Virus record (IMG/VR): IMGVR_UViG_3300009826_000027
Length of the DNA: 51,290 nucleotides
Source of the DNA: a virus
Direction: 5' to 3' (one strand)
Positions 2,843 through 50,444 of this stretch are shown here, one piece after another. The notes beneath the pieces were generated by a model, which saw only the letters and a list, made by a program, of their open reading frames with translations, had not been told where the DNA came from and searched no databases. Position numbers and translations under genes: made by a program. The stretch's first letter is position 1. Each line of letters begins with the position of its first letter.

Positions 2843-4003
2843 TTAGGAAAATGTATAAATATTTTCATTAAAGCTTTGCTTATTATCGAATGCTTTTCTA
2901 ATATCGCGATCGATCGATGAGCTTGATATTAGATGATAATAATACAAATCGTTAAATGGAGTATTAAGTCGATCGATTCGCCCAGCCGCTTGAGTGCGAA
3001 TTTTATAAGAATAATGTTGGGAATAAAAAATCATCGCATCAGTTGTAATGCATTCCCAGCCTTCCGCGCCAGCCATATATTGTACGATATATAACCACTT
3101 TTCGGTGTCTGGTATTTCTTGATGTTTATGACCGTTCCATTCGCCAAGTGGTGTTCGAGTTCTTTCTGCTAGCTCTATTAACATATCTCTCTCGTAATTA
3201 AAATTATAAAAAATTATTAACCGAGGATGTTTTCGCATAAGGCATTCTATTGTATAGGTTCGTCTCGGATCACTATTAACTATACGCCGTAGTACATGAC
3301 ATAATTCGCCAACATCTTTGATAGGTTCTTGTTTATATACATGCCATCGCTCTATGGCGGCCATACGATATAAGTCCATATCATATGATACGGGCACATA
3401 CTTTATATGATGTTTTGTACGGATCCGATACTTCATCATAACAGTAACCTCTTGTCTACACTTCATAAGTCGACCAACCTCAATATATCGATCTATCTTA
3501 GGATATTTAGTGAAGGTGTTCCATACCACATGTCGACGAATAAACTCGGTCCGGTTCTTATAGAGTTTATTTGCGATGAAGACCGGGATATAATCCATCC
3601 ATGTATCACCAGGTGTTGCGCTGAGAAGTAACCAAGTATTAGTCTTAACGATCTCATGAAACGATTTCACCCAAGCGCCGCTACCAACTAATCGTTGCTC
3701 GTCAAAAATGAAAAATGCATCTTTAATCCTTATATATTTACCGATATTATTCCACGAGTCCACTACGATATCCGTATTCAGTAAATCGAATATCGCGCAT
3801 TCTTTTAACCACTCTTTATCATCTCGCTTTTTAGCTGTAGTGATAATATAAAGTTTTTTTAATCTATTGTCGATACGCTCATTATAATAATAGTAATAAA
3901 GGGCGGTTCTAGACTTACCAGAACCAACCCCACCTACCAAGATCTTACCTGACGACAGTTTATCTATGACCTCTTGTTGATGTTGTAACAAACTACGTGT
4001 CAT
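2843..4003 (-). CDS. SF2 (DEAD/SNF2-like) DNA helicase
   Basis: Walker A GGVGSGKS, motif II FDEQR, motif III SATP, motif VI QAAGRIDR. The start is probably ATG 4003 (MTRSLLQHQQEV); the track starts at an upstream GTG at 4027. Confidence 0.8.
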   Translation of the reverse strand: MTRSLLQHQQEVIDKLSSGKILVGGVGSGKSRTALYYYYYNERIDNRLKKLYIITTAKKRDDKEWLKECAIFDLLNTDIVVDSWNNIGKYIRIKDAFFIFDEQRLVGSGAWVKSFHEIVKTNTWLLLSATPGDTWMDYIPVFIANKLYKNRTEFIRRHVVWNTFTKYPKIDRYIEVGRLMKCRQEVTVMMKYRIRTKHHIKYVPVSYDMDLYRMAAIERWHVYKQEPIKDVGELCHVLRRIVNSDPRRTYTIECLMRKHPRLIIFYNFNYERDMLIELAERTRTPLGEWNGHKHQEIPDTEKWLYIVQYMAGAEGWECITTDAMIFYSQHYSYKIRTQAAGRIDRLNTPFNDLYYYHLISSSSIDRDIRKAFDNKQSFNENIYTFS

Positions 4004-4532
4004 GACGACATGCGCCTTTTGATCCACAGTTCATCCCGCAATTTGCACATAAATCTTCACCAATGGAAACTACATCATTCTCTGGTGCATCCATGTATTT
4101 TTGTTCAAACTCATCCTCAGTAATTGTGACGTACATCGACTTAAGGTATGCTTTTACTCCTTTACCGCCATTGGTTTCCCAATTATACGGTCTGATAATC
4201 AAATCGAGATTATCTATATCTGCCCAATCAAGCATTTTTATAGTGTCGTCATCAAGAGCAGTTTTACCTCTACTTGTAACCATTATTACTTTTGGGGGAA
4301 AACGGGAATCGAAGGATACCGCTACTGGCAAATAAGCCTGGGAATCATCCTGTTCATCCCGCGGCTTGAGTTCTCTTATATTCCATCCGTCCGACTTTAA
4401 ACTTGATGCCGTCTCGTGATCAAGTACTACACAAAAGTTCTTTGTATCTTTCGGGTTATATTTACCTTCTTTGCCCGAAAAATTCCTAAATATGATACGT
4501 GCATTTTCTATTATAATATTATTTGTAACCAT
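3993..4532 (-). CDS. Putative ssDNA-binding protein (T7 gp2.5 / DUF2815-like OB fold) with a Cys-rich C-terminal tail
   Basis: The pattern ENARIIFRNFSG...NFCVVLD...GWNI...DLIIRPYNWETNGGKGVKAYLKSMYV resembles gp2.5-like SSBs, and the gene sits in a DUF2800/DUF2815/helicase/VRR-NUC type module. The tail is CANCGMNCGSKGAC. Confidence 0.45.
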   Translation of the reverse strand: MVTNNIIIENARIIFRNFSGKEGKYNPKDTKNFCVVLDHETASSLKSDGWNIRELKPRDEQDDSQAYLPVAVSFDSRFPPKVIMVTSRGKTALDDDTIKMLDWADIDNLDLIIRPYNWETNGGKGVKAYLKSMYVTITEDEFEQKYMDAPENDVVSIGEDLCANCGMNCGSKGACRHDT

Positions 4533-4543
4533 GATGATTCTCC

Positions 4544-7500
4544 TTAAACTGTCAAAGTGAGGCCCTCACCGGACCCTATTAATTTACAATTTCCACAATC
4601 TTTAATACATCCAGGAGGACAACCATGCGCACACCATGGTGGCACATTATCGTCTTCCATTGCTAAAAACCATTCAACATCGCCGAACTTTTTCAATGCT
4701 GCTATGGCGTCGTCGACTAAAGCATTAAAATACCCAAAATCAATCGAGTTTTCCTTCTCTAAAGTTTTTACCATCGCTTCTTCTAACCATCGGTAACCTT
4801 TACTACCGGTAGCGGCATTATATTTACCGTCTTTCTCTCTAAGTAGTATGCCGCCGCCATGATTAGGATAAATTGGACAGAATGAACCAACTTTTCCAAT
4901 TAAACGATATGAATGTTCGCCCTCGGGCAAATCCTCGTTCATATCTAAATACAGAGCAGTAGTGACCGTCTTTGTCTCACATAGATCTTTGAAATTTATT
5001 GGTCCAAAGCATGGGATTCCACGACCAGTCACATATCCATCCTTAAATAATGTCTTAAATACATAAGGATGTATCATTTGCGTTCCTATGGCATACCATT
5101 TGTTCTTTTCTTTACCGACATATACCGCGTCGTTCAACAAACAAAACTTACTATACGTTTTTTCATGCTCAAACGTATAGCCGTACTTTTTACCAAACTC
5201 AAAAATAAATTGCTTAAGTTCTTCGGTCGGATTAACAATTTTAATTGAATCGGTTTTAATGTGTATTACTTTACCTCCTCTCTCTGTTACTTGATGCATT
5301 AGTTCGATCATAAATAGCGCGCCGCGTTTAGCAACTATATTGTCTTTATTGCCCGGCACTGTGAACTTGCTATCAAAATTTTGTTTTGTATAGCCATACA
5401 CAGAATTAAGAACTATCTTTAACGCATATGCTAACTTTTTCATGCCAGTATCATCACTAATATATTTAGCAAAAACGCCGTCTAAAATTGTCGCTACAAG
5501 TTCTAGATCGTCATGTTTGATTCCTATACGTCCGTCAAGAACCTTCTTAAACTTTTCGGTATATGGACCGAATAAATTCAATTCTACTAAACTTGTCGGA
5601 TGCTGTGAGGCGATGTCATATTCATATACATGAGTATACATGCCGGGCATCGCATGCACAAAGCCTCCCTCGCCGACCTCTATGTCGCGATATATACTTT
5701 TACCACGGTCATGAGTGTACCCGGGAAAGAGCGTGCTTAAATCCGTATACACAAATTTTTCTTGTGGTCGTGGATCGGTTCCAAACAAAAATCGCGCAAT
5801 ATGATTCTGAGTTGTATCGTTTACTGACAACCCACTTAAATCCGATAAAATTTGTCTAGCTGTGAAATCCGCTTCTCTGGCATAGAAAACCGCTTCCGTA
5901 GCCACCACATCATTTATACAATAGTCAGCAACAAGTTGCCACTTTTCTTCGGGCACAGGTTCGTCCCACGGCAACCCAAGTTCTTGATGATGGATGCCAA
6001 GTTCTATTTCCCATTTCTTTAATCCTTGCTTGACGGAAGAAAAGTCATAGATATCCGTATATGATAAATTATATGCTTCACCAAAGAAGCAATTCTTACT
6101 ACCATTAACTATCTTCTGACTAAGATCGTAAATTTGAGCGAGATCGTAACCAATGTATCGGGCATATAAAATATGATTATCATATCTTCTACAGTTAAAT
6201 CCAACCAATTTAAACTGTAACAGTCGCCCAATATCTTCTGACGAAGGATTAATCATTGTAACGGCTGGTTTATCTGTAGTCTTCCACACAACTACTAATA
6301 GATTAGGAAAAACCTCGACGTCATAGAATAACAATTCATCAAACTCCGATTCCATCGGTTCACTAATTACTTCCGATGCAAAATGCATCTTATTGACAAT
6401 CTTTATTGCTGTTTCCGATTGATTTGAAGAATTATTTGCAAAGGCGAGGATTTTTGGTCGTAAATCTGTCACATCATATCGTACGCCGGTATTATATGCA
6501 TCGTCTAATATTTTTTGCATAAAGTCAACGTTAGATTTGGTGCCTGGATGAATCTCTTTTTTTAAAGCTTTGGTTATTAATGCTCGAAGATGTTTTTCAT
6601 CATTAACCACATCAACATTAATCATCTTTTCTCCTTTCAATGGCAGTCCACTATTGATCGTGAGTATTGGGGCATTGTTACACATAGTGAGTTTTCGTCG
6701 AAGCGATGCTTTACCAGTAAAGACTTTTATTTCTATACCTTCCGAATACACTCGACTAAGTCTGTTTGTATCTCCATCATATACATAATGAAGATGTATA
6801 CCGGTGCCACTTTTACTATACTCTGCATAAGTGACAGGCCATTTACTCGCCGCTTCTAAATTCAACATTAACGATTTATTACCATCACCATCTGTTAAAT
6901 CAAAATCTATGACTATATGATCCTCTGGCGGCTTAACGTAATGAAGCCTTCGAGGATTAATATTTGCCAGATTTGTTTTCACCTCGTCCCAACGCGCTAT
7001 CGGCGTACCTTCATCATTAGCATACTGTGCTGGACAATCAGCAAATAACTTGTCAAAATTTGATTCTTCTTGTTCTATCACCAAAGATAATGGCTTTTCT
7101 TCTATCATTTCTTCGGCAACAAACTTTACCATTTTAAACCCAATATAATAACTTCTTACCTCCCGACCGTCCACACGGCTTCGTTCTTTAAAATCTTCAA
7201 AATATGATTTTAACTCGTCACGAAATTTATGCCGTGGCAGTCGATATTCAATTAGTGCTTCCTCACAATATGTTTTATACATTGCGTAAGCTTGTACAAG
7301 TGCAACGCCGTCTTGTTCTTTAAACGTATGATAATTAGCTTCAACAAAGTTAAAGAATGTATCCGTTTGATACATCATCGTCAAAGGACGATATCCACTA
7401 TAATAATTTTTACCCAATCGTAAATATGCCTGTAAACATCGCCATGCGATTGCGCCGAGCTCGAAGTTTATTTGATTTATTAAAATATGATACTTTTTAA

Positions 7501-8446
7501 CTGGTACTAATCTCCCGCTCGGTGTTACGTCAATTAATCGCCGAATGACTCCCGATTTTGAATCGGTAATCCGAACAGGTTTATTTGTGCCCATAAAAAG
7601 AAAACAATTAGTACGGGCTGTATAAGCTGCCTTATACTTTTCATTCATTGTCATAAGTTCGTGGGCCACGATCGAATTTAACTTAGAGTTATCCTCAATC
7701 CTGGATAAGTCGCCATCATGCTGAATAGCGACCAAAGGATTATTACGAAATACTTCGGTTGAAAACGCATTTGACGAGCTTGTTAGCGCTTTCGCCTCAA
7801 ACATCGTATAATATCCTTCAAACAATTTCTCTAAAATATTAAGAAATGTCGATTTACCACTGCCCGCTTCACCGTATAATACCACAAATTTTTGAATGTT
7901 TTTTGCTTCGCCGGCTACGATTGCGCCCACGGCCCATTCTAACTTATTTAATTCGTCTGGTTCGTATAAAGTAGTCATTAATTCTTCATACGCCGGACAT
8001 GATCCTTCTTCTAGTGGATACGGTAATCGTCTACTCACATAATCGGTCTTTTTTACTTCCGTATTCACAAAGGTTAGATTATCATCTAGTGGTTGAAAAC
8101 TATCTGGCATCTGTCTAAGAAACGCCCGATAATCTATCCATGACCTCGAAGCAAAATCTTCCATCGCATCGATCAATACCGCCTCAGTATACGATTTTCG
8201 TCTTCTGTTCATATCGGCATCTATTAATCGCGCGACATCGAATTCATCGGTGGACCATAATCCGCGCTCTTCGTCCCATATGGCATAAAACGAATTACCG
8301 CGCACCATTATGTCTTTACTATACTTCACTTTAAAACTCGGACGTAATCTTACGGACGCTATCTCATCGAAGCCCTCATTATCCTTCTTTGTCTTGGTCT
8401 TTTCGATTATTTGATAAAAATCCACAAAATACCTCCTTTCTACCAT
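4544..8446 (-). CDS. Replicase fusion of 1300 aa: D5/P4-like SF3 helicase + archaeo-eukaryotic primase (AEP) + family-B DNA polymerase with 3'-5' exonuclease
   Basis: SF3 helicase: Walker A GEAGSGKS (about 7850-7873) and motif C FMGTN. AEP: IVIDFDL and SKSGTGIHLHY (about 6800-6910). Exonuclease motifs: Exo I FYDVEVF (about 6320), Exo II NCRRYDN, Exo III YCINDV. PolB: motif A DIASQHPTS (about 5600), motif B KIVLNSVYG, motif C IKTDS. C-terminal cluster: CAHGCPPGCIKDCGNC. Confidence 0.85.
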   Translation of the reverse strand: MVERRYFVDFYQIIEKTKTKKDNEGFDEIASVRLRPSFKVKYSKDIMVRGNSFYAIWDEERGLWSTDEFDVARLIDADMNRRRKSYTEAVLIDAMEDFASRSWIDYRAFLRQMPDSFQPLDDNLTFVNTEVKKTDYVSRRLPYPLEEGSCPAYEELMTTLYEPDELNKLEWAVGAIVAGEAKNIQKFVVLYGEAGSGKSTFLNILEKLFEGYYTMFEAKALTSSSNAFSTEVFRNNPLVAIQHDGDLSRIEDNSKLNSIVAHELMTMNEKYKAAYTARTNCFLFMGTNKPVRITDSKSGVIRRLIDVTPSGRLVPVKKYHILINQINFELGAIAWRCLQAYLRLGKNYYSGYRPLTMMYQTDTFFNFVEANYHTFKEQDGVALVQAYAMYKTYCEEALIEYRLPRHKFRDELKSYFEDFKERSRVDGREVRSYYIGFKMVKFVAEEMIEEKPLSLVIEQEESNFDKLFADCPAQYANDEGTPIARWDEVKTNLANINPRRLHYVKPPEDHIVIDFDLTDGDGNKSLMLNLEAASKWPVTYAEYSKSGTGIHLHYVYDGDTNRLSRVYSEGIEIKVFTGKASLRRKLTMCNNAPILTINSGLPLKGEKMINVDVVNDEKHLRALITKALKKEIHPGTKSNVDFMQKILDDAYNTGVRYDVTDLRPKILAFANNSSNQSETAIKIVNKMHFASEVISEPMESEFDELLFYDVEVFPNLLVVVWKTTDKPAVTMINPSSEDIGRLLQFKLVGFNCRRYDNHILYARYIGYDLAQIYDLSQKIVNGSKNCFFGEAYNLSYTDIYDFSSVKQGLKKWEIELGIHHQELGLPWDEPVPEEKWQLVADYCINDVVATEAVFYAREADFTARQILSDLSGLSVNDTTQNHIARFLFGTDPRPQEKFVYTDLSTLFPGYTHDRGKSIYRDIEVGEGGFVHAMPGMYTHVYEYDIASQHPTSLVELNLFGPYTEKFKKVLDGRIGIKHDDLELVATILDGVFAKYISDDTGMKKLAYALKIVLNSVYGYTKQNFDSKFTVPGNKDNIVAKRGALFMIELMHQVTERGGKVIHIKTDSIKIVNPTEELKQFIFEFGKKYGYTFEHEKTYSKFCLLNDAVYVGKEKNKWYAIGTQMIHPYVFKTLFKDGYVTGRGIPCFGPINFKDLCETKTVTTALYLDMNEDLPEGEHSYRLIGKVGSFCPIYPNHGGGILLREKDGKYNAATGSKGYRWLEEAMVKTLEKENSIDFGYFNALVDDAIAALKKFGDVEWFLAMEDDNVPPWCAHGCPPGCIKDCGNCKLIGSGEGLTLTV

Positions 8447-8454
8447 AGTTTCCT

Positions 8455-8740
8455 AAAATGCGTCAAAAAAGTGACGCAATGTCCCTGATGCGTCAAAAAT
8501 GTCAAATGCGTCAAAAGTCACTACGTTTTCAAAAGTTTTTACAAAGAAATTTCACAGAAGAAAACTTCTCTATATATTATATATTTTTACTTTTACTATA
8601 CTATAAAGAAAATAATGACATAATGACACAAATATCTCAAATACACTGGTAAATAGGGCTTTTTGCACGTCATTCACCCCAAATTATTTGACGTTTGCGT
8701 CAAAACCACTTGACACACTGCGTCATTTATTTGACGCGTC
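8455..8740. promoter_or_regulatory. Iteron cluster flanking an AT-rich core; candidate replication origin and/or operator-promoter of the replicase gene
   Basis: TGCGTCA occurs at 8459, 8489, 8507, 8696 and 8719. Inverted TGACGCA or variants occur at 8472, 8688 and 8731. There is a perfect inverted repeat tgcgtca-aaaaag-tgacgca at 8459-8478. The stretch of about 8521-8640 between the two clusters is AT-rich. Confidence 0.55.
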
Positions 8741-9290
8741 TGTCCAAACTAAAATTCTCCATAATCCAAGAATTCATCTGGTACCAGATTTCTACTCGTT
8801 TTTGGTCCCCGGCACCCTCTCCGTGAGGCACTTTGCGTCGTAATGGGAATAATCCACCGCCGCCATTTGCCTTATATTCTCTCGAAACAAGTTGATTTAT
8901 GGCGAAATCTATTAGATTATATCCGTCATATTCGATACTTTCGTTGTCACACCACTCTAATTCTAGGTTTTTAACCAATTCCCAGAACCATTCACCAATC
9001 GGTCTATCAAATGGACCGCCGTAAACCTCAAATTCAAGTCTTCTAGCGACTCCAATCATCATTTCTAGCACCGTACATGGAAAATCCGGCAAATGAGAAG
9101 CCCCATGTAGGGACCTCTCATTCATTAAATATTCGTCACGTAGGACTCGACCGTCCATAAGACGGTTATTATCCATTGGAAGAACTGAATAGAACTCTAT
9201 TTCATATAAACGATCGATCAAGAGACCATATTGTTCTTCTCTCCCGACGATCTTTTTTAGAAAGTCGAGATATCTATTCTTCTTTTTCAT
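8727..9290 (-). CDS. Hypothetical protein (187 aa)
   Basis: ORF with ATG preceded by AAAGGA. Its 3' end overlaps the iteron cluster. I recognise no motif. Confidence 0.6.
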   Translation of the reverse strand: MKKKNRYLDFLKKIVGREEQYGLLIDRLYEIEFYSVLPMDNNRLMDGRVLRDEYLMNERSLHGASHLPDFPCTVLEMMIGVARRLEFEVYGGPFDRPIGEWFWELVKNLELEWCDNESIEYDGYNLIDFAINQLVSREYKANGGGGLFPLRRKVPHGEGAGDQKRVEIWYQMNSWIMENFSLDRRVK

Positions 9291-10020
9291 TTAATGTCCT
9301 TTCTTTATAAGCTTCACTAGGTGACATCGAGGGTCGTACAATTGCATCGATATATGAACCCGTCAATCCGGCGATTTCATAATCTTTTTCCAAGCCATCA
9401 TCCCTCACCCATATATAACTCATGCCCTCGGTGAGTAACCGGATAGCATCCTCACCGATAATCTTTAAGCTATTATCGGTGATATTTTCGTCTCCTTCGG
9501 TGGCTAATATACCATCAGTTTGATAGTAATATAGCGACACCTTTTCATATTCACCGGAGTCGTCTTGCCAGTCATCGATGTCGATTAAATATGGTACGTG
9601 AGCCGATCCGTCCGTACCAGCGCTTAGTTTACAATCACAATCGAATCCCCCACAAAATGCACAGGCGATATCGCCCGCGACCATCTCTTGTCGTGTATGG
9701 ACGGTCTGTAAATTTTGTATTTTAGCCGACTGCAACAAAGCATCTTTAGCCGCGTTAGCATACTGCGTATAATCTACGATATGCTTTTTTCCCTCATCGG
9801 GCGAAACCGGAACAATGGAACTCTTTGATGTTTTCCGCTCAGTAAACTTCTCGTTTACCGCATCTACATCTTCCGCTGTATCGTGTATAAAATCATTTAT
9901 CTCTTCAAATGCCTGCTCAAGTTCCTCCTCGAGCACCCTGATGGCGTTGTTATATACATGTCTGGCTATTAGATATCCGATGCCAGCTCCGCCACCGACT
10001 AATAATATTTCTTTTAACAT
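9274..10020 (-). CDS. Hypothetical protein with N-terminal hydrophobic/Gly-rich segment (248 aa)
   Basis: ORF with GGAG ribosome-binding site. N-terminus is ILLVGGGAGIGYLIA; an internal CAFCGGFDCDC cluster is present. Confidence 0.6.
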   Translation of the reverse strand: MLKEILLVGGGAGIGYLIARHVYNNAIRVLEEELEQAFEEINDFIHDTAEDVDAVNEKFTERKTSKSSIVPVSPDEGKKHIVDYTQYANAAKDALLQSAKIQNLQTVHTRQEMVAGDIACAFCGGFDCDCKLSAGTDGSAHVPYLIDIDDWQDDSGEYEKVSLYYYQTDGILATEGDENITDNSLKIIGEDAIRLLTEGMSYIWVRDDGLEKDYEIAGLTGSYIDAIVRPSMSPSEAYKERTLNEKEE

Positions 10021-10506: not shown

Positions 10507-10669
10507 CGTTATTTCCAAAAGAAGCCTCCATAATAGAGCATCTTTCGGTCGCCATCTCGACGATTTCTTCCTTTTTGAGGCCGTGACGATATTGATAGTC
10601 GTGTTCTTCGCCGTGCTCCTCGACTACGCGTTGGCGATATTCTGACAGTCTTGACACCGCAGTTTCCAT
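10490..10669 (-). CDS. 59-aa protein that duplicates an internal 29-aa segment of the 299-aa membrane protein (not in the track, which cuts off at 60 aa)
   Basis: Sequence is METAVSRLSEYRQRVVEEHGEEHDYQYRHGLKKEEIVEMATERCSIMEASFGNNDDGIC*. GGAGA lies 6 nt upstream of the ATG. The ORF reads the 89-bp repeat in the same frame as 10758..11657. Confidence 0.45.
   Translation of the reverse strand: METAVSRLSEYRQRVVEEHGEEHDYQYRHGLKKEEIVEMATERCSIMEASFGNNDDGIC
10552..10640. repeat. 89-bp perfect direct repeat, copy 1
   Basis: ccatctcgacgatttcttcctttttgaggccgtgacg...cgcgttggcgatat is identical to 11171..11259. Confidence 0.95.
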
Positions 10670-10757: not shown

Positions 10758-11657
10758 TCATATCTGATCGTAAATCAAGCCGTCCACATTGAAATCGAGA
10801 AGCAATCTATTAATATGACCATTTACAAACTCTCGGTTTTTGATCGCTAATCCGTTAAAAATTCCGAAGTCAATATGGCCATCGCCTTCTCCATCGTGTG
10901 TCCACCCAACAACGGAGGCTTCCGATGAACGCGGAATCCCCAGTAAATCGTATACATCGTTTAGGAATACATGCCCTCGGGCAATGAGAAGATTATTCGC
11001 ATACTTCTGCTGTGCCAAAAGAAACATGTGATTATATTCCTGGTTCGACGACCATTGAGAACAAGTCTCGTCGAACCATCGAGCATAGATCGATGGTTGA
11101 TCGAAGTCGTCGGTAACTGGCGTATAAACTTCTTTTTTAACCGCCTTTTCTTTACCTTTTTCGTCGGCTACCATCTCGACGATTTCTTCCTTTTTGAGGC
11201 CGTGACGATATTGATAGTCGTGTTCTTCGCCGTGCTCCTCGACTACGCGTTGGCGATATGCAGTAAACCCCCGTTCAAGGGCCTTGTATGCCGCCGCCAT
11301 AGCAACATTGCGACCATGCATTATCTTGTATCCATTTCCTATGAGGAAAATGGATAATGCGGCCAAACTCACAGACGGACCATAGAGCTTGGCTAATTCT
11401 ATGCCAAAAGTAAAATACTGCTTTGTGAGTGCTTTTTGGCGCTCTTTCTCGTCATGGAATTTGGTATCTGAGACGGCCAACAATCGATCTTGATGTTCGT
11501 CAACTACGTCATCAAGTTTTCTTGTGGCGATAGCCGCGGTTACTCCGGCGCCAAGTAATCCAGCCGTGCCCGCCACGACTGCTATCGTAGGGGCATGTTT
11601 TTGCAGGACGAGTCCTGTGCGACCTAGGGTTGATAAAATATTAGTAATTACTTGCAT
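10758..11657 (-). CDS. Membrane protein (2 predicted TM segments); paralogue of 16665..17387 (DUF6353-like by recollection)
   Basis: Hydrophobic segments are PTIAVVAGTAGLLGAGVTAAIA and GPSVSLAALSIFLIGNG. The C-terminal module is LNDVYDLLGIPRSSEASVVGW...IDF. Confidence 0.6.
   Translation of the reverse strand: MQVITNILSTLGRTGLVLQKHAPTIAVVAGTAGLLGAGVTAAIATRKLDDVVDEHQDRLLAVSDTKFHDEKERQKALTKQYFTFGIELAKLYGPSVSLAALSIFLIGNGYKIMHGRNVAMAAAYKALERGFTAYRQRVVEEHGEEHDYQYRHGLKKEEIVEMVADEKGKEKAVKKEVYTPVTDDFDQPSIYARWFDETCSQWSSNQEYNHMFLLAQQKYANNLLIARGHVFLNDVYDLLGIPRSSEASVVGWTHDGEGDGHIDFGIFNGLAIKNREFVNGHINRLLLDFNVDGLIYDQI
11171..11259. repeat. 89-bp perfect direct repeat, copy 2 (inside CDS 10758..11657)
   Basis: Identical to 10552..10640. 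Encodes YRQRVVEEHGEEHDYQYRHGLKKEEIVEM. Confidence 0.95.
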
Positions 11658-19837: not shown

Positions 19838-21448
19838 CTATGCACCATCCCTTAGTATAGTATATACGCCAGTTAGAGCTGAAGTAGGTCTTGTATTAGC
19901 GTATAGAACTACTGCATCGCCGTCGATTATACAAGCAGCCGGAATTCCAGCCGACGTTGCAATTAGTAACGATTGCAGTGTAAAATTAAAATTAATGACA
20001 TCGTTATGCTCAATATTTTCTATCTGAACCCGTAATTCCCAATCGAACGTGTCGTGGGAACTGGTTGTCCAAGCATTAACTAATAAATTAAATGGTCGTA
20101 TTATAGCGCGACCATCTATGCCCTGAGGACCTGGAGGACCGGTTTCGCCTTGAATGCCCTGAGGACCTGGAGGACCGGTTTCGCCTTGAATGCCCTGAGG
20201 ACCTGGAGGACCGGTTTCGCCTTGAATGCCCTGAGGACCGGTTTCGCCTTGTACGCCCTGTAGTCCTTGTGTCCCATCTTGACCGTCCGTACCAGCTACA
20301 CCTTGTGGTCCTTGTGGTCCTTGTTCGCCTATATCGCCCTTAGAACCTTGTACACCCTGGACGCCTTGCGGTCCTTCTGGACCGATGTCGCCTTGAGGAC
20401 CTATTGGGCCTTGTATACCCTGTTCTCCCTGTGGTCCTACCGGACCGATGTCGCCTTGTATACCCTGAATACCTTGTGCCCCTTCAAGACCCTGCGGTCC
20501 CATTTCGCCTTGTATACCCTGAATGCCTTGTGGTCCTTCAAGACCCTGCGGTCCCATTTCGCCTTGTATACCCTGAATGCCTTGTGGTCCTTCAGGACCG
20601 ATGTCGCCTTGAGGACCACGGAACTCGGTTCCTTCGCCAGAGGCAGGGAATACCGAACCTGACCAAATATAGAGAAGACCGTCGGCCCTATTCATCCATG
20701 CACGACCGGCGTCTCCCGCTCCAAGAGTTGATGCGATAGCTGCTAGCTCTGCGTATGTTAATACATCACCGGCAATTTCTATACCAGCGCCGTCCGCACC
20801 AGCTACCCCTTGTGGTCCTTGCGGACCGATTGGTCCTTGTATGCCTTGAGATCCATCATGACCTTGCTCGCCTTGGATTCCTTGTATGCCTTGAATGCCC
20901 TGAGGACCGGTTTCGCCTTGAATGCCCTGAATGCCTTGTGGTCCTTCAGGACCCTGAGGACCGATGTCGCCTTGTATGCCCTGAATACCTTGTGGTCCTA
21001 TGTCACCTTGTGTGCCGGTAAGACCCGGCTCTCCTTGTGGTCCTTGATAGCCTTGTACTCCTTGAGGACCTGGAGGACCGGTTTCGCCTTGAATGCCCTG
21101 AGGACCTGGAGGACCGGTTTCGCCTTGAATGCCCTGAGGACCGGTTTCGCCTTGAATGCCCTGAGGACCATTCGCGCCAGCTGGACCTTGCGGTCCGATT
21201 GGTCCTGGAGGTCCTTGTGGGCCGCTACCACCTGGTCCGCCAGAACCGCCTATATGATCAAGAATATTAAATTCATTACCATCTTTATCGATAAATATGG
21301 CGTTTATTGCCGTCATATTAGGTTTAATTTGGGATTTATTTATAAACGAACCGCTGGCTATATCGAAGTATTTATTATCTGGAGTTACGAATACTCCTAG
21401 TCCAGCTGCTCTATTTTGTTCTCTCACTTCGCTGTCATCTCCGATCAT
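19838..21448 (-). CDS. Collagen-like (Gly-X-Y) fibre protein (536 aa)
   Basis: Two long GXY tracts ([16 protein letters not shown]...) are separated by a non-collagenous insert ([16 protein letters not shown]...[17 protein letters not shown]). A globular C-terminal domain follows. Confidence 0.85.
20105..21245. repeat. In-frame DNA cassette repeats encoding GXY units
   Basis: A 36-nt unit gccctgaggacctggaggaccggtttcgccttgaat occurs x3 at 20120-20227 and again at about 21057-21156. A 54-nt unit occurs x2 at about 20484-20595. Confidence 0.85.
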
Positions 21449-30764: not shown

Positions 30765-33700
30765 TTAGATGTCGCGCAGTTGCGCCATTTGATTCTCCGT
30801 TTGTCTATAGATCTCTGTTCTCGACAACGCTTTTGGCGAGACGTTTGTTTGGTTAAACGTATTATAAGTATTGCCATGCTCACGCGCCATTTCAACGAAG
30901 GCGCGCTCGGCGGATTCTTGTCGAGCTATGGCGTCCACTATGCGTTCCCCGAATGGCGTGTATTCTCTACCGGCGACAAGCATATCGGCAAGCGATGCAT
31001 AGCCACCGACACCTTCTCCGGCTACGATGACTGGTGTTGGGCCTAGTGGACCTACGCCAATAAGAGATGCGGCATCTATGACTCGCGCAATATTTTTCAT
31101 AATACTGGCGACCGCATTCTCTACTTGTTGTGCTAATACAACTAGCGCTTCGATAATGCGATGCGAAGCATATTCAGTTTCATAATAGAAACCATCACCT
31201 ATCTTTATAGCGCTATCTCCGCCAAACAAATACAACATATCTTTAAATTCTGTAAAGATTTTACTATGTTGTATACGATCAATTAATGAATCAACGCTCG
31301 CTACGATTTGATAGTATATACTATCTACATTACTAACAAAACCATCACCAATAGCATCTGCGTAGGTGGCGCCAGTATTAAAGAATGTTAATGTGACGCC
31401 CTCATTTATCGCATCTGTGGCATGCCGAAACTCTTCTACTACTTGCGTAGCCGTTTCGCTCTGCACAGTCTCAATAAATCCGGTACCTATTGCTTGCGCA
31501 TAGGACTCACCAACAGCTTCAAAAGTTGGTTTAAGTTGGATCATAGATTCCTCAGTAGTACGTTGGAATCCCGATACCATGGCTCTACCAGTTTCAACCA
31601 ACCCAGCAATCGTAGCCGCATTTATGGGCTCGATCATAGATTCGACCACAAAATCGGGATCGAATCCTGCCCGTTCCATCGCCCAATCGCGTACGTCTTC
31701 GTCGGAATATCCCATACGAGAACGTAGAATATCTGCTTGTTCCGAACTTACAAATTGAATAAATCGCGATCGTGCCGCAGACTGTTCCTGTCTAGCCTGC
31801 TCAAGTCGCTCTGTGTGCGACTCTGTATGATCTAGAATTGTTTGATCCAATTCATTTAAAGTTCTAATGTGTGTGAGTTGCTCGCGACGCACATCGTTAT
31901 AAGCTTCTCTTGCTTCGGTGGACGATGCCCCAAGAGTCGCTACCATTTCGTTATAGCGTTGAATCGCCAATAAAATACGCTCTTGCTGCGCATGCGCCGT
32001 AGCCATAAGATGTTCTTGCTGGCGTATAACGCGTTCGTCTTCCGTGGCCGTATCACCGTAAAGAGCTTCCCATAGATCTCTATGAAGATCGTACATTGTG
32101 GTTCGAATGTCAATCGAACCTAATTTTTCACGAAAGGCCTCCATGATACGCTGGGCCAGATTACGTGCCGCATCTTCGGCAGATTTGTTTTCATCTAAGC
32201 CATCAGCAATACCGTCGACGATGGGATAACCCACTTCATATTTTGGCACTCTAGCCGGAGAATGTATCTCTAGATTAGTTTGAAACTCTCTAACGATATT
32301 ATTAGATAAATTGCGTATCGCATTATTTAGAAAGGATTCTCGATCTCCGAAGCCATATACTAATCCTTCTATAATATTGCGCCCAACTACACGCATCTCA
32401 TTACGAAGAAGCGTATTGCTATTGCGAATTCTATCGCGAATAACATTTATAAGATTGAACGTCTCTTTTCGAAGCTCGTTATGTGCGGACGGGAGCACAC
32501 GAATTATGTCATCGATGATTGTGCTCATTGTCCCTGGGATATAACTCCCATTTTGATTGAGTGTATGGGAAATCACATACAGCCATGCATCAATGCTGCG
32601 CATTACTGTGGTGTGAGAATCATCGAATGCTGCCGTGAATTTTATTATACCATCGTTTGCTAAACGGGTAAGATTGGTGGAGAAATTTCCTACAGCAGTC
32701 ATGTTTATTCCTGCTATGCCTTTGGCGACCTCGACAAGTGCGCCGATACTATCTACAGCCCTATTAAGCGTGGAAATAGTAATCCCTCTAATACTCTCGT
32801 AATATTCTTGTAAACCAGCACCAAATTGAGCTGCTTGTCTACCAAAAGAGCCTAGATCCTGATTACCTCTGAAGAATTGTGCGACTCCTCCCTCTCTAGA
32901 GAGATTCGACGCTAAGGCGGAAAGAGCCATAGCAGCATTTGCTGAATTTTCAACTATCGAATAGTCTATGCCTTCGACGGAATTTGCATAGGCTTTAAGA
33001 TATGGGCCCAATTCCGCTGCTTCTTTACCAAAGTCAGAAAGACTTTTACGCCCAGCAAAGACTTGTGCGACACCCTCTTGTCGAGGAAGATTATGTGCGA
33101 GACGCGCAAGACATTTTGCCGCCGCTGCTGACGCCGATACGTAACTCATATCTAAGCCTGCTACAGATGTAGCAAAGGTAGTAATATGTGGGCCCAAGAG
33201 TGCGATCTCTTCAGCGAATCCTGCTATACTTCTACTACCAGCGAACACTTGCGCTATTCCATCTTGTCTTGGTAGATTATGAGCTAAGCGCGCCAAACAC
33301 TTTGCTGCCGTGGCGGCGTTGCTTATATCCTCTCCTGACAAGCCTTGTACCGATTCAGCGAACGCCTTTAAATAAGGCCCCAAAATCGAAATCTCTTCAG
33401 CGAATCCTGCTATACTCCTACTACCGGCAAATACCTGCGCTATTCCATCTTGTCTTGGTAGATTATGAGCGAGTTCGGCTAAGGTTTTAGCAGCAATTGC
33501 AGCCGCTTGTACGGAAGAAGAATTAAGTCCGGCTACTTTTTCAGAGAAAGCAACTAAGGCCGGAGCAAGTTCGAGTATTTCTTCTGTAAAGCTAGAAAGA
33601 TCTCTCGTGCCGGCAATGTTTTGCCATAACCCGCCTTCGGCAGGTAGATTCTGTGCAAATTGCGCCAAGGTATTGGCGGCATCGGCAGCAGCTTGTACCG

Positions 33701-36700
33701 CGCTACCATCTATTCCTTTAACCTCTTCATAAAAGGCTTTAATATACGGAGCAAGATTTGCGATTTCTTTTCCGAATCGCGCCATAGCCGATCCATCGCC
33801 CGTAAACCATGAAGTAAGACTATCAAGAATATCGGCCGCGGTTAATGCGATCATAATCGCGGCTAATGCGGCAACGCCTGCTACTGCGCGAGCATCTACC
33901 TTCCCGATATTATCGAAGAAGGGAGTGGCGCTCTCCATAAACGAGCCGAGAGCTTCTCCCATGCGGGGAAGAGCATCGGATATACCGCCCATTATACCAC
34001 CAACGATTGCGCCTAAGAAGTTTCCTAAACCTTCGCCGAGTTTAATGAGTAAATCTATACCTTCATTGATGATCCAATTAAACCCTGGTATTTGTGCCAG
34101 ACTACCAAGTAAAGTCAGTAACGCAGCTAGTCCACCGACAAATATCGCTAAGGCGGCCACAGCGCTTAACGCGCCTTTGGGATTGACTAGTCCTAATATT
34201 ATCATTGCTCCGGAGAGAGATAATATAAGTACCGATATAGATGCGGCTATGCCGATGACTGCTTCAACGCCCATTGTATTGAGTAGTATCAACATCGCCG
34301 ATACTACCGCCAGCATAAGTGCCATTCCGCCTAAAGTGATAAGCGCTTTACCAGCATATTTTTTAACTGCGGCTAGCGCGACAAAAGATGCTATTAATGC
34401 TCCAATTGCGGCGGTAAAGCCCCAGACATTGCCGCTACCGGTAACATCGAATACCGAATTAAGTATTCCGCGAACTACCGCAGCCCCGGCATCAACTATT
34501 TCTGGTATTCTTTCGCCAAGTGCATATAATGCGGCGATGATGACGTACATTAATATCGCAACCAATTGATATACTATTGGTCTGATATTTGTCTGTACGG
34601 CCTCAAGTATAGATGCTAGTCCTTCTAAAATTACCGGTACTAGCAATACTAAAGCATCGACCACTGCAACTACCAACACTACAACCGTATTGATCAGATA
34701 CGGTATAATATCACGGAACATATCAAGGATGCCTTTGAGTAAGTCGTGCGCGATACGAACTATATAAGGAACGAGGGCTAAAATAGCCGTTATAATAACG
34801 ACTAATGCGCCGGCAAAAACACTCGCTCCTGCTGCTAATGCAGTGAGTCCTGCCGCGAACGCTAATAAGCCCGTACCTATTAATACTAATCCGACACCTA
34901 GTAGTGTTATACTTAAGGCAAGACCAAGTATTGCCGGCACTAAAGGACCAAGTAACTTACCGGCCAATCCAACTACCGCGAATGCCCCAGCTAAAGCTAT
35001 CAGACCTTTAGCTATTTCTTCCCATGACATTCCACCAAGTAGTCGCAGCATAGGAATAAATATGGCTAATGCGGTCGACATTAGCAGCATGGCTGCTGCG
35101 GCACCAGTGGTGCCTCGCATCACATTCATCGCCACTGCAAGTATCAGCATGGATCCGGCTAATGCAACTAGGCCCCTAGCTATTTCTTGCCAAGTCATAC
35201 CCGCAAAGTTAGCGAGAGCACGTGCAAAAATGTGTAATGCTGCGCCAACCAATGCTAAGCCTGTCGCTTTATTTATCATGCCCTTCGGCATAAGATTTAA
35301 GGCCAGTGTAATGATGGTCAATGCGCCGCCCATACCAGCTAAACCACGAACCAGTGTGCCCCAATCCATGGCAGCGAAATGCATTAATGCTCGTGCAAAA
35401 ATGTGCATGGCTGCACCAAGAACAACTAAGCCGGTCGCCTTATTTATCATACCCTTAGGTAAAAAATTTAAAGCGATCACAACTAAAAGTAAGGCCCCGC
35501 CCATTCCCGTAAGACCTCTCGCTAATGTCGACCAGTCCATAGCTGCGAATGCTGCCACCGCCATAGCAAAGATATTCATGGCACCAGCCAAGGCTATCAT
35601 ACCTAAACCGGTAGATATTATTCGCTTAGGACTACCGAGTAAATATGTAAATCCGACAATCATACCAAGCATAATACCTATGCCAGTAAGACCACGGAAC
35701 ATCGCCTCCCATTCCATATCACCGAGACGACGTACTGCGCTAGTCAACATCATCAATGCGCCAGCAAAAGCTATCATACCTATGCCGCCGCGCACCATTT
35801 TAGGTGCTCCTGACGATAATGCTTTAGCAATGGCCACCAACATACCGGATAATAAGTATAATCCTAGTATCCCCCGCATCATCTGATCCATTTCTAATGA
35901 TGCGATCGCACGTAATGCAACGGCTAAAACTAATATAGCACCGGCAAGAATATAAAGTTGTACAACTTTACCAATGCCGCCACCTTTACTTTTACCCATT
36001 AACTCCATAGAACCTATGAGCGATGCGAATAGACCAGCAATCGCCACTAAAGATATAGTTAACTGATCCGCCGGTATTCGCGATAATACCCATAGAGCTG
36101 CAGCCAATATACCGATGGCGATGGCGATATTCATCAACGTCTTCGACTGTAAATATCTTTGATATTCGCCAAGAGAACGGCGAACCCCATCCAATACGCC
36201 TGTAATATTTGTACCGATACCGGAGAATGCGCCCATGGTATTACGAAGTCTTGTCATTATCTGATGGATGGTAACAAATATTGCTGCTATCGCGGCAGAA
36301 CTTATCAAATCGAAAATATCACTAAATTGTAAATTAGCCATCGATCGACGGATAATGTCGCCAATATCACGAATGGCGTTACCGAATACTTGTATTAATG
36401 GTGCCAGTATTGGCAAAAGAAATTGAACTGCTCTTACTATCCCATTAATTACTGTTTGGAATCCACGCGCAACCGCGGTTAGCGGTCTAAATCGTCCCTC
36501 TACCGCATCGGTAAACGCGTTAAACGGTCTTAAGTTTATATTTTCAAAGGCATTAAATGCCATAGAAATTCTTTGCACCGCCCAAGTGGCGCCATCCGCA
36601 ATATCTTGTAAAAGATTGCGGATGAAATTTAGAACTCTCTCAAAGTTCTCAGTGGACAACGTTCCTTCATTTAGAGCTACTAGGAAATCACCAATAGTTG

Positions 36701-38072
36701 CAGTAACTGATAAAAAACCATTGGCTACTGGGAATAGATGTCCCACTAACATTCCGAAAACTCTAAATATAGAACTCAAAGATCGTCCGAGTATGTTGAA
36801 TAAGGCGAACACGCCGGCAAAAGTTCGTTGTAATCTATCTAATGTATGTTCGGATATAGATATCGACTCCGCCCATTGGCGAAATCTGGCGGATAAATCG
36901 GCTAATATTTCGCCAGTCATGGGAGGAAATATTAGTCTAAATGCATCGGTGACTGTGCGTATAACTTGACCTAATTGACTTAGGACCGCTCGCATACCTT
37001 CGATTATGTCTTCACGGCCACCAAGCTCGGACCATGTAGCGAGCATGGCATTTCTACCATCTTGCATTGGTCCTATTATACTAGTCCACCAATCAGATAT
37101 TTGCGTAAATAGCCGAGCGGACTGTTCTACGTCGCCAATAACTAGACGCCATGATTCAATCCAGCCTTTAGCAACCACATTAGTCATTTGCTCTCTCAAA
37201 CGAGAAAGGGTCTGTACTCTAGTCGCGGCCTCGGCCATTTGTTCATTGGCGTACAGCATCTGTGCGGCTAATCGCATGGCGTCGCCAGAAATTCGTTTGC
37301 CAAATTCCTGAGACTGATCGATCATATCCCTAAAAGCGACTTCACCATTAAGGACCATGTCACGATGCGCGGCATCAAGATCGCCAACCGCATAAGCCGC
37401 TTCGACAATGGTATCTACCAATGCGACGCCACCGATGCGAGAATAAATCATATCCCATTGTACAAGGCTACCTATTCCTCGATACATTGTTCGAGAATAG
37501 TATAACATAGCACGCTCGACATCGCTCGTGCTGGCGCCCAAATAGGCCCCTGCATTAGCAAGGCCCATTATTGCCTGTGTTGATTCTTCCAGTGGAATTC
37601 TAGCTTGAGTCATAGTCTTTAATGCGTCGACTAGACCAGTTACCGTCGAAACAGAAACTGCCGCATATTCCTCTAGAACTTTGATTGACGCATTGACGTC
37701 TTGCATGGTACTACCATGCATTGCGCCGGCATTTGCATATATTACTCTGGTTCGCTCCATAATATGTTCATAGCCGCGAAATCCTTCAATAATATTACCA
37801 AAGATCATTTGATGGGCGGTCGATAGTCCCCAATCCATCAATCGATTCGTGATGTTGCCGATAGCCGCTATGGCGACCCGTTCGAGGTTACTAAAACCTA
37901 CTTTTATTTGGGCCACATTGCTATCTACTTTTTGTAGACCCTTCTCGGCGCCTGCCATAGCGAGTGCCTGATTAAGATTGGCTAATGATTTTTTTGATTG
38001 CGATATGCCACTCTCAAACTGCTTATTGTTGAATTGCATATGCACGACACGATTATCGACTGTTCTACTCAT
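30765..38072 (-). CDS. Tape measure protein (2435 aa)
   Basis: It is the largest ORF and lies between the chaperones and Dit. It is mostly alpha-helical and Ala/Gly/Leu-rich, with a long hydrophobic central region and internal tandem repeats. Confidence 0.9.
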   Translation of the reverse strand: MSRTVDNRVVHMQFNNKQFESGISQSKKSLANLNQALAMAGAEKGLQKVDSNVAQIKVGFSNLERVAIAAIGNITNRLMDWGLSTAHQMIFGNIIEGFRGYEHIMERTRVIYANAGAMHGSTMQDVNASIKVLEEYAAVSVSTVTGLVDALKTMTQARIPLEESTQAIMGLANAGAYLGASTSDVERAMLYYSRTMYRGIGSLVQWDMIYSRIGGVALVDTIVEAAYAVGDLDAAHRDMVLNGEVAFRDMIDQSQEFGKRISGDAMRLAAQMLYANEQMAEAATRVQTLSRLREQMTNVVAKGWIESWRLVIGDVEQSARLFTQISDWWTSIIGPMQDGRNAMLATWSELGGREDIIEGMRAVLSQLGQVIRTVTDAFRLIFPPMTGEILADLSARFRQWAESISISEHTLDRLQRTFAGVFALFNILGRSLSSIFRVFGMLVGHLFPVANGFLSVTATIGDFLVALNEGTLSTENFERVLNFIRNLLQDIADGATWAVQRISMAFNAFENINLRPFNAFTDAVEGRFRPLTAVARGFQTVINGIVRAVQFLLPILAPLIQVFGNAIRDIGDIIRRSMANLQFSDIFDLISSAAIAAIFVTIHQIMTRLRNTMGAFSGIGTNITGVLDGVRRSLGEYQRYLQSKTLMNIAIAIGILAAALWVLSRIPADQLTISLVAIAGLFASLIGSMELMGKSKGGGIGKVVQLYILAGAILVLAVALRAIASLEMDQMMRGILGLYLLSGMLVAIAKALSSGAPKMVRGGIGMIAFAGALMMLTSAVRRLGDMEWEAMFRGLTGIGIMLGMIVGFTYLLGSPKRIISTGLGMIALAGAMNIFAMAVAAFAAMDWSTLARGLTGMGGALLLVVIALNFLPKGMINKATGLVVLGAAMHIFARALMHFAAMDWGTLVRGLAGMGGALTIITLALNLMPKGMINKATGLALVGAALHIFARALANFAGMTWQEIARGLVALAGSMLILAVAMNVMRGTTGAAAAMLLMSTALAIFIPMLRLLGGMSWEEIAKGLIALAGAFAVVGLAGKLLGPLVPAILGLALSITLLGVGLVLIGTGLLAFAAGLTALAAGASVFAGALVVIITAILALVPYIVRIAHDLLKGILDMFRDIIPYLINTVVVLVVAVVDALVLLVPVILEGLASILEAVQTNIRPIVYQLVAILMYVIIAALYALGERIPEIVDAGAAVVRGILNSVFDVTGSGNVWGFTAAIGALIASFVALAAVKKYAGKALITLGGMALMLAVVSAMLILLNTMGVEAVIGIAASISVLILSLSGAMIILGLVNPKGALSAVAALAIFVGGLAALLTLLGSLAQIPGFNWIINEGIDLLIKLGEGLGNFLGAIVGGIMGGISDALPRMGEALGSFMESATPFFDNIGKVDARAVAGVAALAAIMIALTAADILDSLTSWFTGDGSAMARFGKEIANLAPYIKAFYEEVKGIDGSAVQAAADAANTLAQFAQNLPAEGGLWQNIAGTRDLSSFTEEILELAPALVAFSEKVAGLNSSSVQAAAIAAKTLAELAHNLPRQDGIAQVFAGSRSIAGFAEEISILGPYLKAFAESVQGLSGEDISNAATAAKCLARLAHNLPRQDGIAQVFAGSRSIAGFAEEIALLGPHITTFATSVAGLDMSYVSASAAAAKCLARLAHNLPRQEGVAQVFAGRKSLSDFGKEAAELGPYLKAYANSVEGIDYSIVENSANAAMALSALASNLSREGGVAQFFRGNQDLGSFGRQAAQFGAGLQEYYESIRGITISTLNRAVDSIGALVEVAKGIAGINMTAVGNFSTNLTRLANDGIIKFTAAFDDSHTTVMRSIDAWLYVISHTLNQNGSYIPGTMSTIIDDIIRVLPSAHNELRKETFNLINVIRDRIRNSNTLLRNEMRVVGRNIIEGLVYGFGDRESFLNNAIRNLSNNIVREFQTNLEIHSPARVPKYEVGYPIVDGIADGLDENKSAEDAARNLAQRIMEAFREKLGSIDIRTTMYDLHRDLWEALYGDTATEDERVIRQQEHLMATAHAQQERILLAIQRYNEMVATLGASSTEAREAYNDVRREQLTHIRTLNELDQTILDHTESHTERLEQARQEQSAARSRFIQFVSSEQADILRSRMGYSDEDVRDWAMERAGFDPDFVVESMIEPINAATIAGLVETGRAMVSGFQRTTEESMIQLKPTFEAVGESYAQAIGTGFIETVQSETATQVVEEFRHATDAINEGVTLTFFNTGATYADAIGDGFVSNVDSIYYQIVASVDSLIDRIQHSKIFTEFKDMLYLFGGDSAIKIGDGFYYETEYASHRIIEALVVLAQQVENAVASIMKNIARVIDAASLIGVGPLGPTPVIVAGEGVGGYASLADMLVAGREYTPFGERIVDAIARQESAERAFVEMAREHGNTYNTFNQTNVSPKALSRTEIYRQTENQMAQLRDI
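32780..33800. repeat. About 180-nt (60-aa) tandem repeats inside the tape measure (5-6 units; approximate bounds)
   Basis: Repeated peptide is ...AAKCLARLAHNLPRQDGIAQVFAGSRSIAGFAEEI..LGP.... Near-identical DNA occurs at about 33211-33290 and 33391-33470. Confidence 0.8.
34880..35900. repeat. About 174-nt (58-aa) hydrophobic tandem repeats inside the tape measure (approximate bounds)
   Basis: Repeated peptide is MDW.TL.RGL.GMGGAL....ALN.(L/M)PKGMINKATGL...GAA(M/L)HIFARAL. Confidence 0.8.
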
Positions 38073-43896: not shown

Positions 43897-43915
43897 AAAA
43901 TAAAGAGCTCCTTTC

Positions 43916-48849: not shown

Positions 48850-48902
48850 AAGTTAAGGCCTCCTTTCACATAAATCTTTAATGACAGATTCTCCGTCAGT
48901 CT

Positions 48903-49007
48903 GAAAACATTTAGTTTTTGACTAGGGGTCCTTGAAAGGAGCTCCGGGCTCACCAATCCCGAAGATAAAGTGTCGGCTTTACCCCTAGTCAAAAACTAAA
49001 TGTTTTC
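48903..49007. repeat. Perfect 26-bp inverted repeat with a 53-nt spacer
   Basis: gaaaacatttagtttttgactagggg (48903-48928) pairs with cccctagtcaaaaactaaatgttttc (48982-49007). Confidence 0.95.
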
Positions 49008-49183
49008 TAAATTTTATCCCCCGGAGAAAAATTTAAAAGAGAGGCGATGCAAGGGGGGGTGGGTTTTTACGGACCCTGCCCCCATATACATAGGTGTGAT
49101 AGCCCCTAGTACGTCTAGAGGAAGCAACTGCGCGCATAATGAAATAGTTTTTCATTATGTTTTGTATACTTTTTTACAAGGGA

Positions 49184-49277
49184 CAAATACAGAAATAAAA
49201 AGAAATACAGAAATAAAAAACAAATACAGAAATAAAAAACAAATACAGAAATAAAAAACAAATACAGAAATAAAAAG
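49184..49277. repeat. Tandem repeat, 5 x 18-19 nt (CAAATACAGAAATAAAAAA)
   Basis: Copies start at 49184, 49202, 49221, 49240 and 49259. Confidence 0.95.
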
Positions 49278-49360
49278 TTTATAATTTCAAATAATGATAT
49301 TGTATGAAATTGAATATTTATCAATTAACGAGTGATTGGATGTGGTAATACGAGCTAAAA

Positions 49361-49498: not shown

Positions 49499-49530
49499 TA
49501 AACTAAAATTTACTTATTTTAGAAATTACA

Positions 49531-50146: not shown

Positions 50147-50201
50147 TCGATGGGGGGGTTATAGGGGGGCTCAAGGTAGAATCAAAGACTAGTGTGTCTT
50201 T

Positions 50202-50441: not shown

Positions 50442-50444
50442 CTC

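Follow-up and report, generated by a model that had tools for sequence, protein, structure and literature searches.

The 51,290-nucleotide stretch of viral DNA analyzed here, IMG/VR record IMGVR_UViG_3300009826_000027 (hereafter the window), carries on its minus strand a single open reading frame (ORF) at positions 4544..8446 that codes for a putative replicase of 1300 amino acids (aa), counted from an ATG. A first-pass annotation made from the sequence alone had described this ORF as one uninterrupted gene combining a superfamily 3 (SF3) helicase, an archaeo-eukaryotic primase (AEP) as well as a DNA polymerase of family B (PolB). The ORF listing confirmed that there is no internal stop, and each of the motifs named in that annotation occurs exactly once, at the residue reported. 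Our analysis suggests, with a probability of roughly 90%, that the product is an orthologue of the GP55-type replicase of Lactococcus phage 1706 and acts as the replicative enzyme of its phage.

The annotated ATG is probably not the real start. A GTG at position 8425 is preceded, 6 nt upstream, by a perfect AGGAGG Shine-Dalgarno sequence, whereas the ATG at the 8446 end has none; the sequence upstream of the start reads ...ATGgtagaaAGGAGGtattttGTGgatttt... Furthermore, an identical protein in the database (P0001) has a called length of 1293 aa, and the N-terminus of GP55, MDFYK, corresponds to MDFYQ in the window replicase when counted from the GTG. Because of these three observations, we consider the likely coding sequence to be 4544-8425 (minus strand, 1293 aa). 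This correction alters nothing else in the reading of the protein, and residues are numbered below from the ATG.

All domains and motifs of the replicase lie on the same minus strand. The protein begins with a beta-rich domain ahead of the ATPase (aa 1-130, 8057..8446), which falls within the part of the structural model that aligned to D5-type primase-helicases. It is followed by a D5/P4-type SF3 helicase (aa 131-447, 7106..8056), recognized by profile, fold and motif evidence, with a Walker A motif GEAGSGKS (aa 192-199, 7850-7873), a Walker B motif IQHDGD (aa 241-246, 7709-7726), a sensor-1 motif FMGTN (aa 284-288, 7583-7597) and an Arg-finger region RRLID (7529-7543). A predicted PriS-like AEP primase catalytic domain comes next (aa 455-612, 6611..7084), with motif I IVIDFDL (aa 511-517, 6896-6916), motif II SKSGTGIHLHY (aa 544-554, 6785-6817) and a candidate motif III IEIKV (6722-6736), and then a four-helix accessory domain, aHD (aa 613-690, 6377..6610). 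The PolB part consists of a 3'-5' exonuclease subdomain (aa 700-880, 5807..6349), bearing Exo I FYDVEVF (aa 707, 6308-6328), Exo II NCRRYDN (aa 751, 6176-6196) and Exo III YCINDV (aa 842, 5906-5923), and of a polymerase subdomain (aa 881-1260, 4667..5806), bearing motif A DIASQHPTS (aa 944, 5591-5617), motif B KIVLNSVYG (aa 1010, 5393-5419) and motif C IKTDS (aa 1063, 5246-5260). A Cys-rich tail, WCAHGCPPGCIKDCGNCK (aa 1271-1288, 4583..4636), lies near the C-terminus. The domain inventory of the first-pass annotation was therefore correct for its three domains and incomplete in two respects, as it had overlooked aHD between the AEP and PolB domains as well as the likely GTG start.

The same annotation had tentatively regarded the helicase-primase-PolB fusion as novel, but this architecture is already published. 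Kazlauskas et al. (NAR 2016, PMC4889955) listed gp55 of phage 1706 with a helicase-AEP-PolB fusion in the same order, and Zhang et al. (NAR 2025, PMC12205980) characterized the purified protein as a 'four-in-one replicase' with DNA polymerase, 3'-5' exonuclease, UTP/dTTP-dependent helicase and RNA primase activities. In the latter study, K189A abolished the helicase activity, D509A the primase activity (RNA primer synthesis), D712A/E714A the exonuclease and D949A the polymerase (PMC12205980). The authors also described aHD as a new four-helix domain between the AEP and PolB domains that is required for priming via Y655 and F667, and found GP55 to be mainly a dimer with a strong priming site, 5'-CCAAC-3', and a preference for GTP at initiation (PMC12205980). 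Therefore, the window replicase is another member of a family whose fusion architecture is atypical yet known, named and biochemically characterized.

GP55 (orf55, YP_001828703) is colinear in one piece with aa 7-1256 of the window replicase (37.5% identity by tblastn), and a global alignment gave 39.7% identity. The two proteins belong to the same length class (1317 vs 1300 aa) and share the order N-terminal domain, SF3 helicase, PriS-like AEP, aHD, PolB exonuclease and PolB polymerase, with regional identities of 30%, 33%, 53%, 46%, 49% and 41.5%, respectively, and of 28% at the C-terminus. All seven residues mutated in GP55 are kept (K189 as K198, D509 as D516, Y655 as Y657, F667 as F669, D712 as D709, E714 as E711, and D949 as D944), and these seven positions are invariant in an alignment of 50 family members. 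Colinearity, the three folds or families, the kept GP55 residues and synteny are thus direct observations on the window. Conversely, we infer from about 40% identity that the enzymatic activities, the preferences for UTP/dTTP in unwinding and for GTP in initiation, and the dimeric state would carry over from GP55.

Evidence for the helicase was also obtained from profiles and fold comparison. Pfam family DUF5906 (PF19263) matched aa 190-303 (E=1e-13), the sole Pfam recognition in the replicase, and the C-terminal halves of PHROG primase-helicase families matched the region at 1e-15 to 1e-26. A Foldseek search of the PDB with an AlphaFold2 (AF2) model of aa 1-700 (pLDDT 69.6, pTM 0.39) retrieved the SaPI5 primase-helicase (7ola, 3.6e-9), the C-terminal region of the NrS-1 protein (6k9c), African swine fever virus (ASFV) PrimPol, monkeypox virus (MPXV) E5 and vaccinia D5. 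The entries matched in this search include 8iqi, 9im1 and 8hwg, and the D5-type matches ranged from 1e-6 to 4e-9. The same model also resembles D5-like proteins in a viral structure library (BFVD). K198, D244, D246, N288, R302 and R303 are invariant in the 50-member alignment, and all the features of a D5/P4-type SF3 P-loop ATPase, namely Walker A, Walker B, sensor 1, Arg finger and fold, were found. A weak Pox_D5-like match covers aa 365-424, and D5-family helicases carry a winged-helix DNA-binding domain at the equivalent position.

For the polymerase, the family profile matched E. coli Pol II (1.8e-5), and the match aligned motifs A, B and C of the two. In a Foldseek search with an AF2 model of aa 681-1300 (pLDDT 77, pTM 0.70), the best 50 PDB matches were all family-B polymerases. 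Archaeal PolBs as well as Pol II and Pol alpha scored between 1e-12 and 6e-15, with Deep Vent (5h12) at 5.8e-15; the 50 also include 9°N, KOD and the ASFV polymerase. These are RNA/DNA-primed enzymes, which is consistent with a PolB that extends RNA primers. Exo I-III and polymerase motifs A-C are invariant across the 50 relatives. Between the AEP and PolB domains, the first model predicts four helices (617-628, 637-653, 660-671 and 677-685), and model and alignment together indicate that the two helix pairs of aHD are present in the window replicase.

The evidence for the AEP domain is of several kinds. Four PHROG primase families matched the region through their N-terminal parts, at 5e-5 to 0.03 (phrog_695, 5e-5; phrog_1829, 1.2e-3; phrog_3022, 2.4e-3), and hhalign set TYAEYSKSGTGIHLHY on SYTEISPSGDGLHVVV of NrS-1, an alignment confined to motif II (E=0.0047, probability 7.5%, with a profile Neff of 1.8 and a single-sequence target). 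D514 and D516 (DxD), S544, H551 and H553 (SxH) and E572 are invariant in the 50-member alignment and fall on consecutive strands predicted at 510-515, 550-556 and 571-575. We accept the assignment of the central domain as a predicted AEP primase because the PHROG primase matches, the motif II alignment, the invariant residues on strands and the aHD-like helices are joined by 53% identity to the validated GP55 domain, the highest in the whole protein. The three domains proposed by the first-pass annotation are thus all supported, the AEP core in particular through orthology to the mutated GP55 D509.

Several results nevertheless weigh against reading the window replicase as a GP55-type enzyme. 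The Pfam scan of the central region recognized no AEP family, even at E<=10, and no PolB domain was found by Pfam in the replicase; no meaningful match emerged when the central region, the first 140 aa and the last 168 aa were scanned. A search of PDB sequences with the family profile returned no AEP match, and phmmer with the whole replicase against PDB sequences returned no match. The model of the N-terminal half is mediocre, and its Foldseek results (PDB, BFVD) were dominated by the helicase. Furthermore, identity to GP55 is modest, falling to 33% in the helicase and 28% at the C-terminus. The Cys-rich tail, missing from GP55, may indicate that regulation or partner binding differs in the window replicase, and its activities are predicted from the biochemistry of GP55. 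The independent evidence for the AEP domain is weak (hhalign probability below 10%), whereas the orthology to GP55 is strong.

The lack of a Pfam AEP family and the weak alignment to NrS-1 would also fit a central domain that is a degenerate or structural AEP remnant, with priming carried out by a protein (phi29-like), by the host primase or RNA polymerase, or by a DFDGD-motif polymerase-like protein of the phage. No zinc finger, PriL or HBD was found beside the AEP domain, and the phage encodes a putative YonO-like RNA polymerase, both of which would suit such a scheme. However, the DxD and SxH motifs and the next acidic strand are invariant in 50 relatives, and this domain is the one most conserved with GP55 (53%). 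GP55 D509A loses RNA primer synthesis, and the priming-essential residues Y655 and F667 are kept in the window replicase (PMC12205980). The RNA/DNA-primed nature of the best structural matches of the PolB part also argues against a remnant, which we consider very unlikely compared to a functional AEP primase.

The fusion proved to be widespread. The PHROG family phrog_4210 (profile positions 1-1289 of 1304) aligned to aa 8-1265 of the replicase with 1840 bits, revealing a dedicated whole-protein family. A tblastn search of 50,697 phage records matched 411, of which 252 cover at least 80% of the replicase in one colinear piece. These full-length homologues, nearly all annotated as "DNA primase/polymerase", occur in Arthrobacter, Gordonia and Streptomyces phages (45-54% identity), in human-gut siphovirus contigs (47%) and in Lactococcus phages 1706 and P162 (36-38%). 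In a large protein database, at least 8000 matches to the replicase were found; among the matches listed, 120 clusters have proteins of 1238-1384 aa with at least 95% query coverage and 59-64% identity, P0001 being identical. Several full-length family entries from the JGI bear the name 'energy-coupling factor transporter ATP-binding protein EcfA2', an annotation error that stems from the P-loop.

The closest cultured relatives are the actinophage proteins (for example Arthrobacter phage Zeina gp61, Gordonia phage Tanis gp62 and Streptomyces phage Scap1 gp42), with 45-54% identity over aa 4-1291. Their replicases are full-length and accompanied by the same two conserved upstream genes as in the window, but these phages have other hosts and another GC content, and most of their tblastn alignments end ahead of the Cys-rich tail of the window replicase. 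At the nucleotide level, megablast of window positions 1-25000 against phages gave no match, and the phage thus has no near relative in culture by this measure. Enterococcus siphoviruses and Seurat/9g-like Escherichia phages are related in the PolB part only (aa ~695-1095, 22-25% identity), and their PolBs are separate genes without helicase or AEP domains.

Such stand-alone polymerases, together with the origin of the window in a metagenome assembly (with a MEGAHIT-style contig name), could suggest that separate helicase, primase and polymerase genes were artificially fused into the long ORF by assembly or by a frameshift. Yet alignments with the genomes of cultured phages (Arthrobacter, Gordonia, Streptomyces and Lactococcus 1706) show no gaps at the domain junctions, and GP55 is expressed as a single polypeptide (PMC12205980). 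The 120 listed clusters are colinear with the replicase, at 1238-1384 aa and at least 95% coverage, and this effectively excludes mis-assembly or a hidden frameshift.

The first-pass annotation was right to call the domain order unusual. The canonical arrangement, in which the primase is N-terminal to the helicase, is not that of the window replicase, where the helicase (aa 131-447) precedes the AEP domain (aa 455-612). The order is swapped relative to canonical primase-helicases. The halves of phrog_1829 align in reverse, the C-terminal one matching aa 146-439 and the N-terminal one aa ~502-552; NrS-1 gp28 also aligns in swapped order. The primase is N-terminal in 94% of primase-helicase fusions (Kazlauskas 2016, PMC4889955). 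NrS-1 gp28, vaccinia D5 and MPXV E5, ASFV PrimPol and the SaPI5 primase-helicase are built from the same blocks, a D5-type SF3 helicase and a PrimPol-type AEP (DxD, SxH), but in these proteins the AEP comes first. In addition, the window replicase has aHD where an HBD, PriCT or zinc finger would lie beside the AEP domain, and, unlike the canonical AEP-SF3 primase-helicases, it has a covalently attached PolB. Two other systems are set apart by their description (PMC4889955): Pas55 of Actinoplanes phage phiAsp2, the other known helicase-primase-polymerase triple fusion, combines a DnaG primase with PolA, and phage N4 dns also has an AEP C-terminal to its helicase, but this helicase belongs to SF6 (DUF3987) and no polymerase is attached.

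The replicase gene is part of a complete phage genome. A 123-bp exact direct terminal repeat (1-123 and 51168-51290) was found, and therefore the window represents a complete genome of 51,167 bp that is circularly closed or terminally redundant. The window is a rotated copy of European Nucleotide Archive (ENA) contig k141_3732119 (ERZ27257300, 51,144 bp). The genome is that of a siphovirus, with genes for a large terminase, a portal, a capsid protein fused to a protease, a tape measure of 2435 aa, a fibre of collagen-like type and an endolysin.

Immediately downstream of the replicase lies a gene for a single-stranded DNA (ssDNA)-binding protein (3993..4532; PF24083 Phage_ssDNA_bind, phrog_4787), followed by genes for a second DNA helicase (2843..4027; phrog_62), at the place of phage 1706 orf67, an endonuclease (2443-2868; phrog_93) and an exonuclease (1938-2540; phrog_3953), the latter pair at the places of orf68 and orf69. 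All four genes are on the minus strand. Phage 1706 thus has the downstream replication module in the same gene order: the succession of ssDNA-binding, helicase, endonuclease and exonuclease genes equals its orf66-69 and is also found in four metagenomic relatives. In phage 1706, however, orf55 and the ssDNA-binding/annealing gene have about ten small ORFs between them.

By homology to GP55, the N-terminal SF3 helicase would unwind duplex DNA by hydrolysis of nucleoside triphosphates. The PriS-like AEP together with aHD would synthesize short RNA primers de novo on single-stranded DNA exposed in this way, and PolB would extend these primers with dNTPs and proofread by its 3'-5' exonuclease, the helicase providing the polymerase with strand displacement. 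On this reading the enzyme would be a replisome in itself, and it would act within the conserved replication/recombination module, alongside the ssDNA-binding protein, the second helicase, the endonuclease and the exonuclease.

A repair or translesion PrimPol-like enzyme, or the replicase of a mobile element (pipolin, piPolB-like), could share such a composition without being the main replicase, as AEP-helicase proteins are common on satellites and plasmids and piPolBs are reported as PolBs that synthesize DNA without a primer (PMC5695915). However, the protein is the only DNA polymerase found in the complete 51.2-kb siphovirus genome, and it lies within the replication module at a position kept in relatives. 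Furthermore, its primase and polymerase active sites are both present and separate. A repair or mobile-element role is in our view highly improbable, more so than an AEP remnant, and the protein is best regarded as the probable main replicase of the phage.

The non-coding spacer upstream of the replicase (8447..8738, ~280-301 bp) is a candidate origin or operator array. Of the 11 TGACGCA copies in the genome, 6 lie in this spacer, where they occur in both orientations and flank an AT-rich core; the arrangement looks like either an iteron origin or an operator array. Four metagenomic relatives have equivalent spacers of 143-433 bp (L004, 2181-2500; L005, 2358-2500; L006, 2068-2500; L007, 2210-2500) with lineage-specific motifs (GTGTAACA/GTGTCACA, or TGAAGCG), and the AT-rich core element AATATATAATATATA.A.AAGTTTT is conserved in the spacers of the window and of these relatives. 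An upstream array is not a family-wide feature, as the corresponding gaps in phage 1706, Zeina and Scap1 measure only ~15-40 bp; phage 1706 has no repeat-bearing spacer upstream of orf55, and the actinophages have gaps of ~15-25 bp without an iteron-like array. A sigma-70 promoter scan of 4300-9000 yielded 25 matches vs 17.5 ± 4.9 in shuffled sequences, which is not above expectation and does not distinguish a promoter from an origin. A 64-aa gene called in the spacer of the ENA contig was rejected as spurious, its translation being the repeat read as MRQK...MRQK.

At the other end of the gene, a variable C-terminal tail with at least four Cys residues is present in 42 of 49 aligned close relatives, and model confidence over the tail of the window replicase is low. 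The protein ends with the dipeptide PF in 29 of the 49, usually as LPF or IPF, a tip that resembles the C-terminal tip of bacterial single-stranded DNA-binding proteins. The window replicase lacks this PF ending. No other frame encodes an LPF end, and the idea that a frameshift near the 3' terminus conceals one was therefore rejected. An origin is not discussed in the study of GP55, and neither is any zinc or cysteine motif (PMC12205980). The ssDNA-binding protein is also Cys-rich at its end (CANCGMNCGSKGACRHDT), and CAFCGGFDCDC occurs inside a 248-aa protein (9274-10020, minus strand), so that several proteins of the replication region contain Cys-rich clusters. A tentative and rather doubtful proposal is that the spacer is an origin read by the replicase's own DNA-binding domain located after the ATPase, and that the Cys4/5 tail serves to bind metal or to dock a partner. 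In that case, enzymes of the GP55 type would combine initiator and replisome in one self-contained protein.

Other features of the window were recorded. The ends of the window cut through an 887-aa gene (50445-51167 joined to 1-~1941, minus strand), across the terminal repeat. Its product is matched over the full length by phrog_4291 ('RNA-dependent RNA polymerase') and has a GADFDGDTV motif and N- and C-terminal helix-turn-helix-like segments. No sequence relative of this protein was found in the PDB, and it may be a YonO-like single-subunit RNA polymerase. A 1.6-kb stretch at ~48850-50445, with 36% GC and no ORF of at least 90 aa, holds two tandem 63-bp units (49364-49489) that are 95% identical, each with an internal palindrome TATATCATTGTATAATGATATA; this AT-rich stretch is possibly another regulatory or origin region. 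A 96-nt direct repeat (10545-10640 and 11164-11259, 97% identity, 619 bp apart) has one copy inside a 299-aa gene (DUF6353/phrog_2152) and the other just downstream of that gene.

Three structural genes on the minus strand were also noted. The collagen-like (Gly-X-Y) tail-fibre gene (19838-21448) contains extensive 9-nt-periodic repeats and accounts for a local GC peak of 0.485. A 672-aa head-maturation protease is fused to a major-capsid-like C-terminal part (42079-44097; phrog_3270 and phrog_10), and the tape measure protein (30765-38072) is unusually long, with internal 186-nt repeats at 32968-33470. No tRNAs were found in the 51,290 nt of the window.

As a discovery, the window replicase carries little weight, as the literature already describes its architecture, a PHROG family is dedicated to it and its annotation in actinophages is routine. 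Pfam-based annotation, however, sees only DUF5906 in GP55-type replicases. A modest upside lies in the origin-like array and the Cys-rich tail, both of them testable and neither covered by the GP55 study. Furthermore, a divergent orthologue with about 40% identity to GP55, encoded by a complete siphovirus genome of metagenomic origin, provides material for the comparative enzymology of single-chain replisomes, for which uses in DNA amplification like those of phi29 polymerase may be possible.

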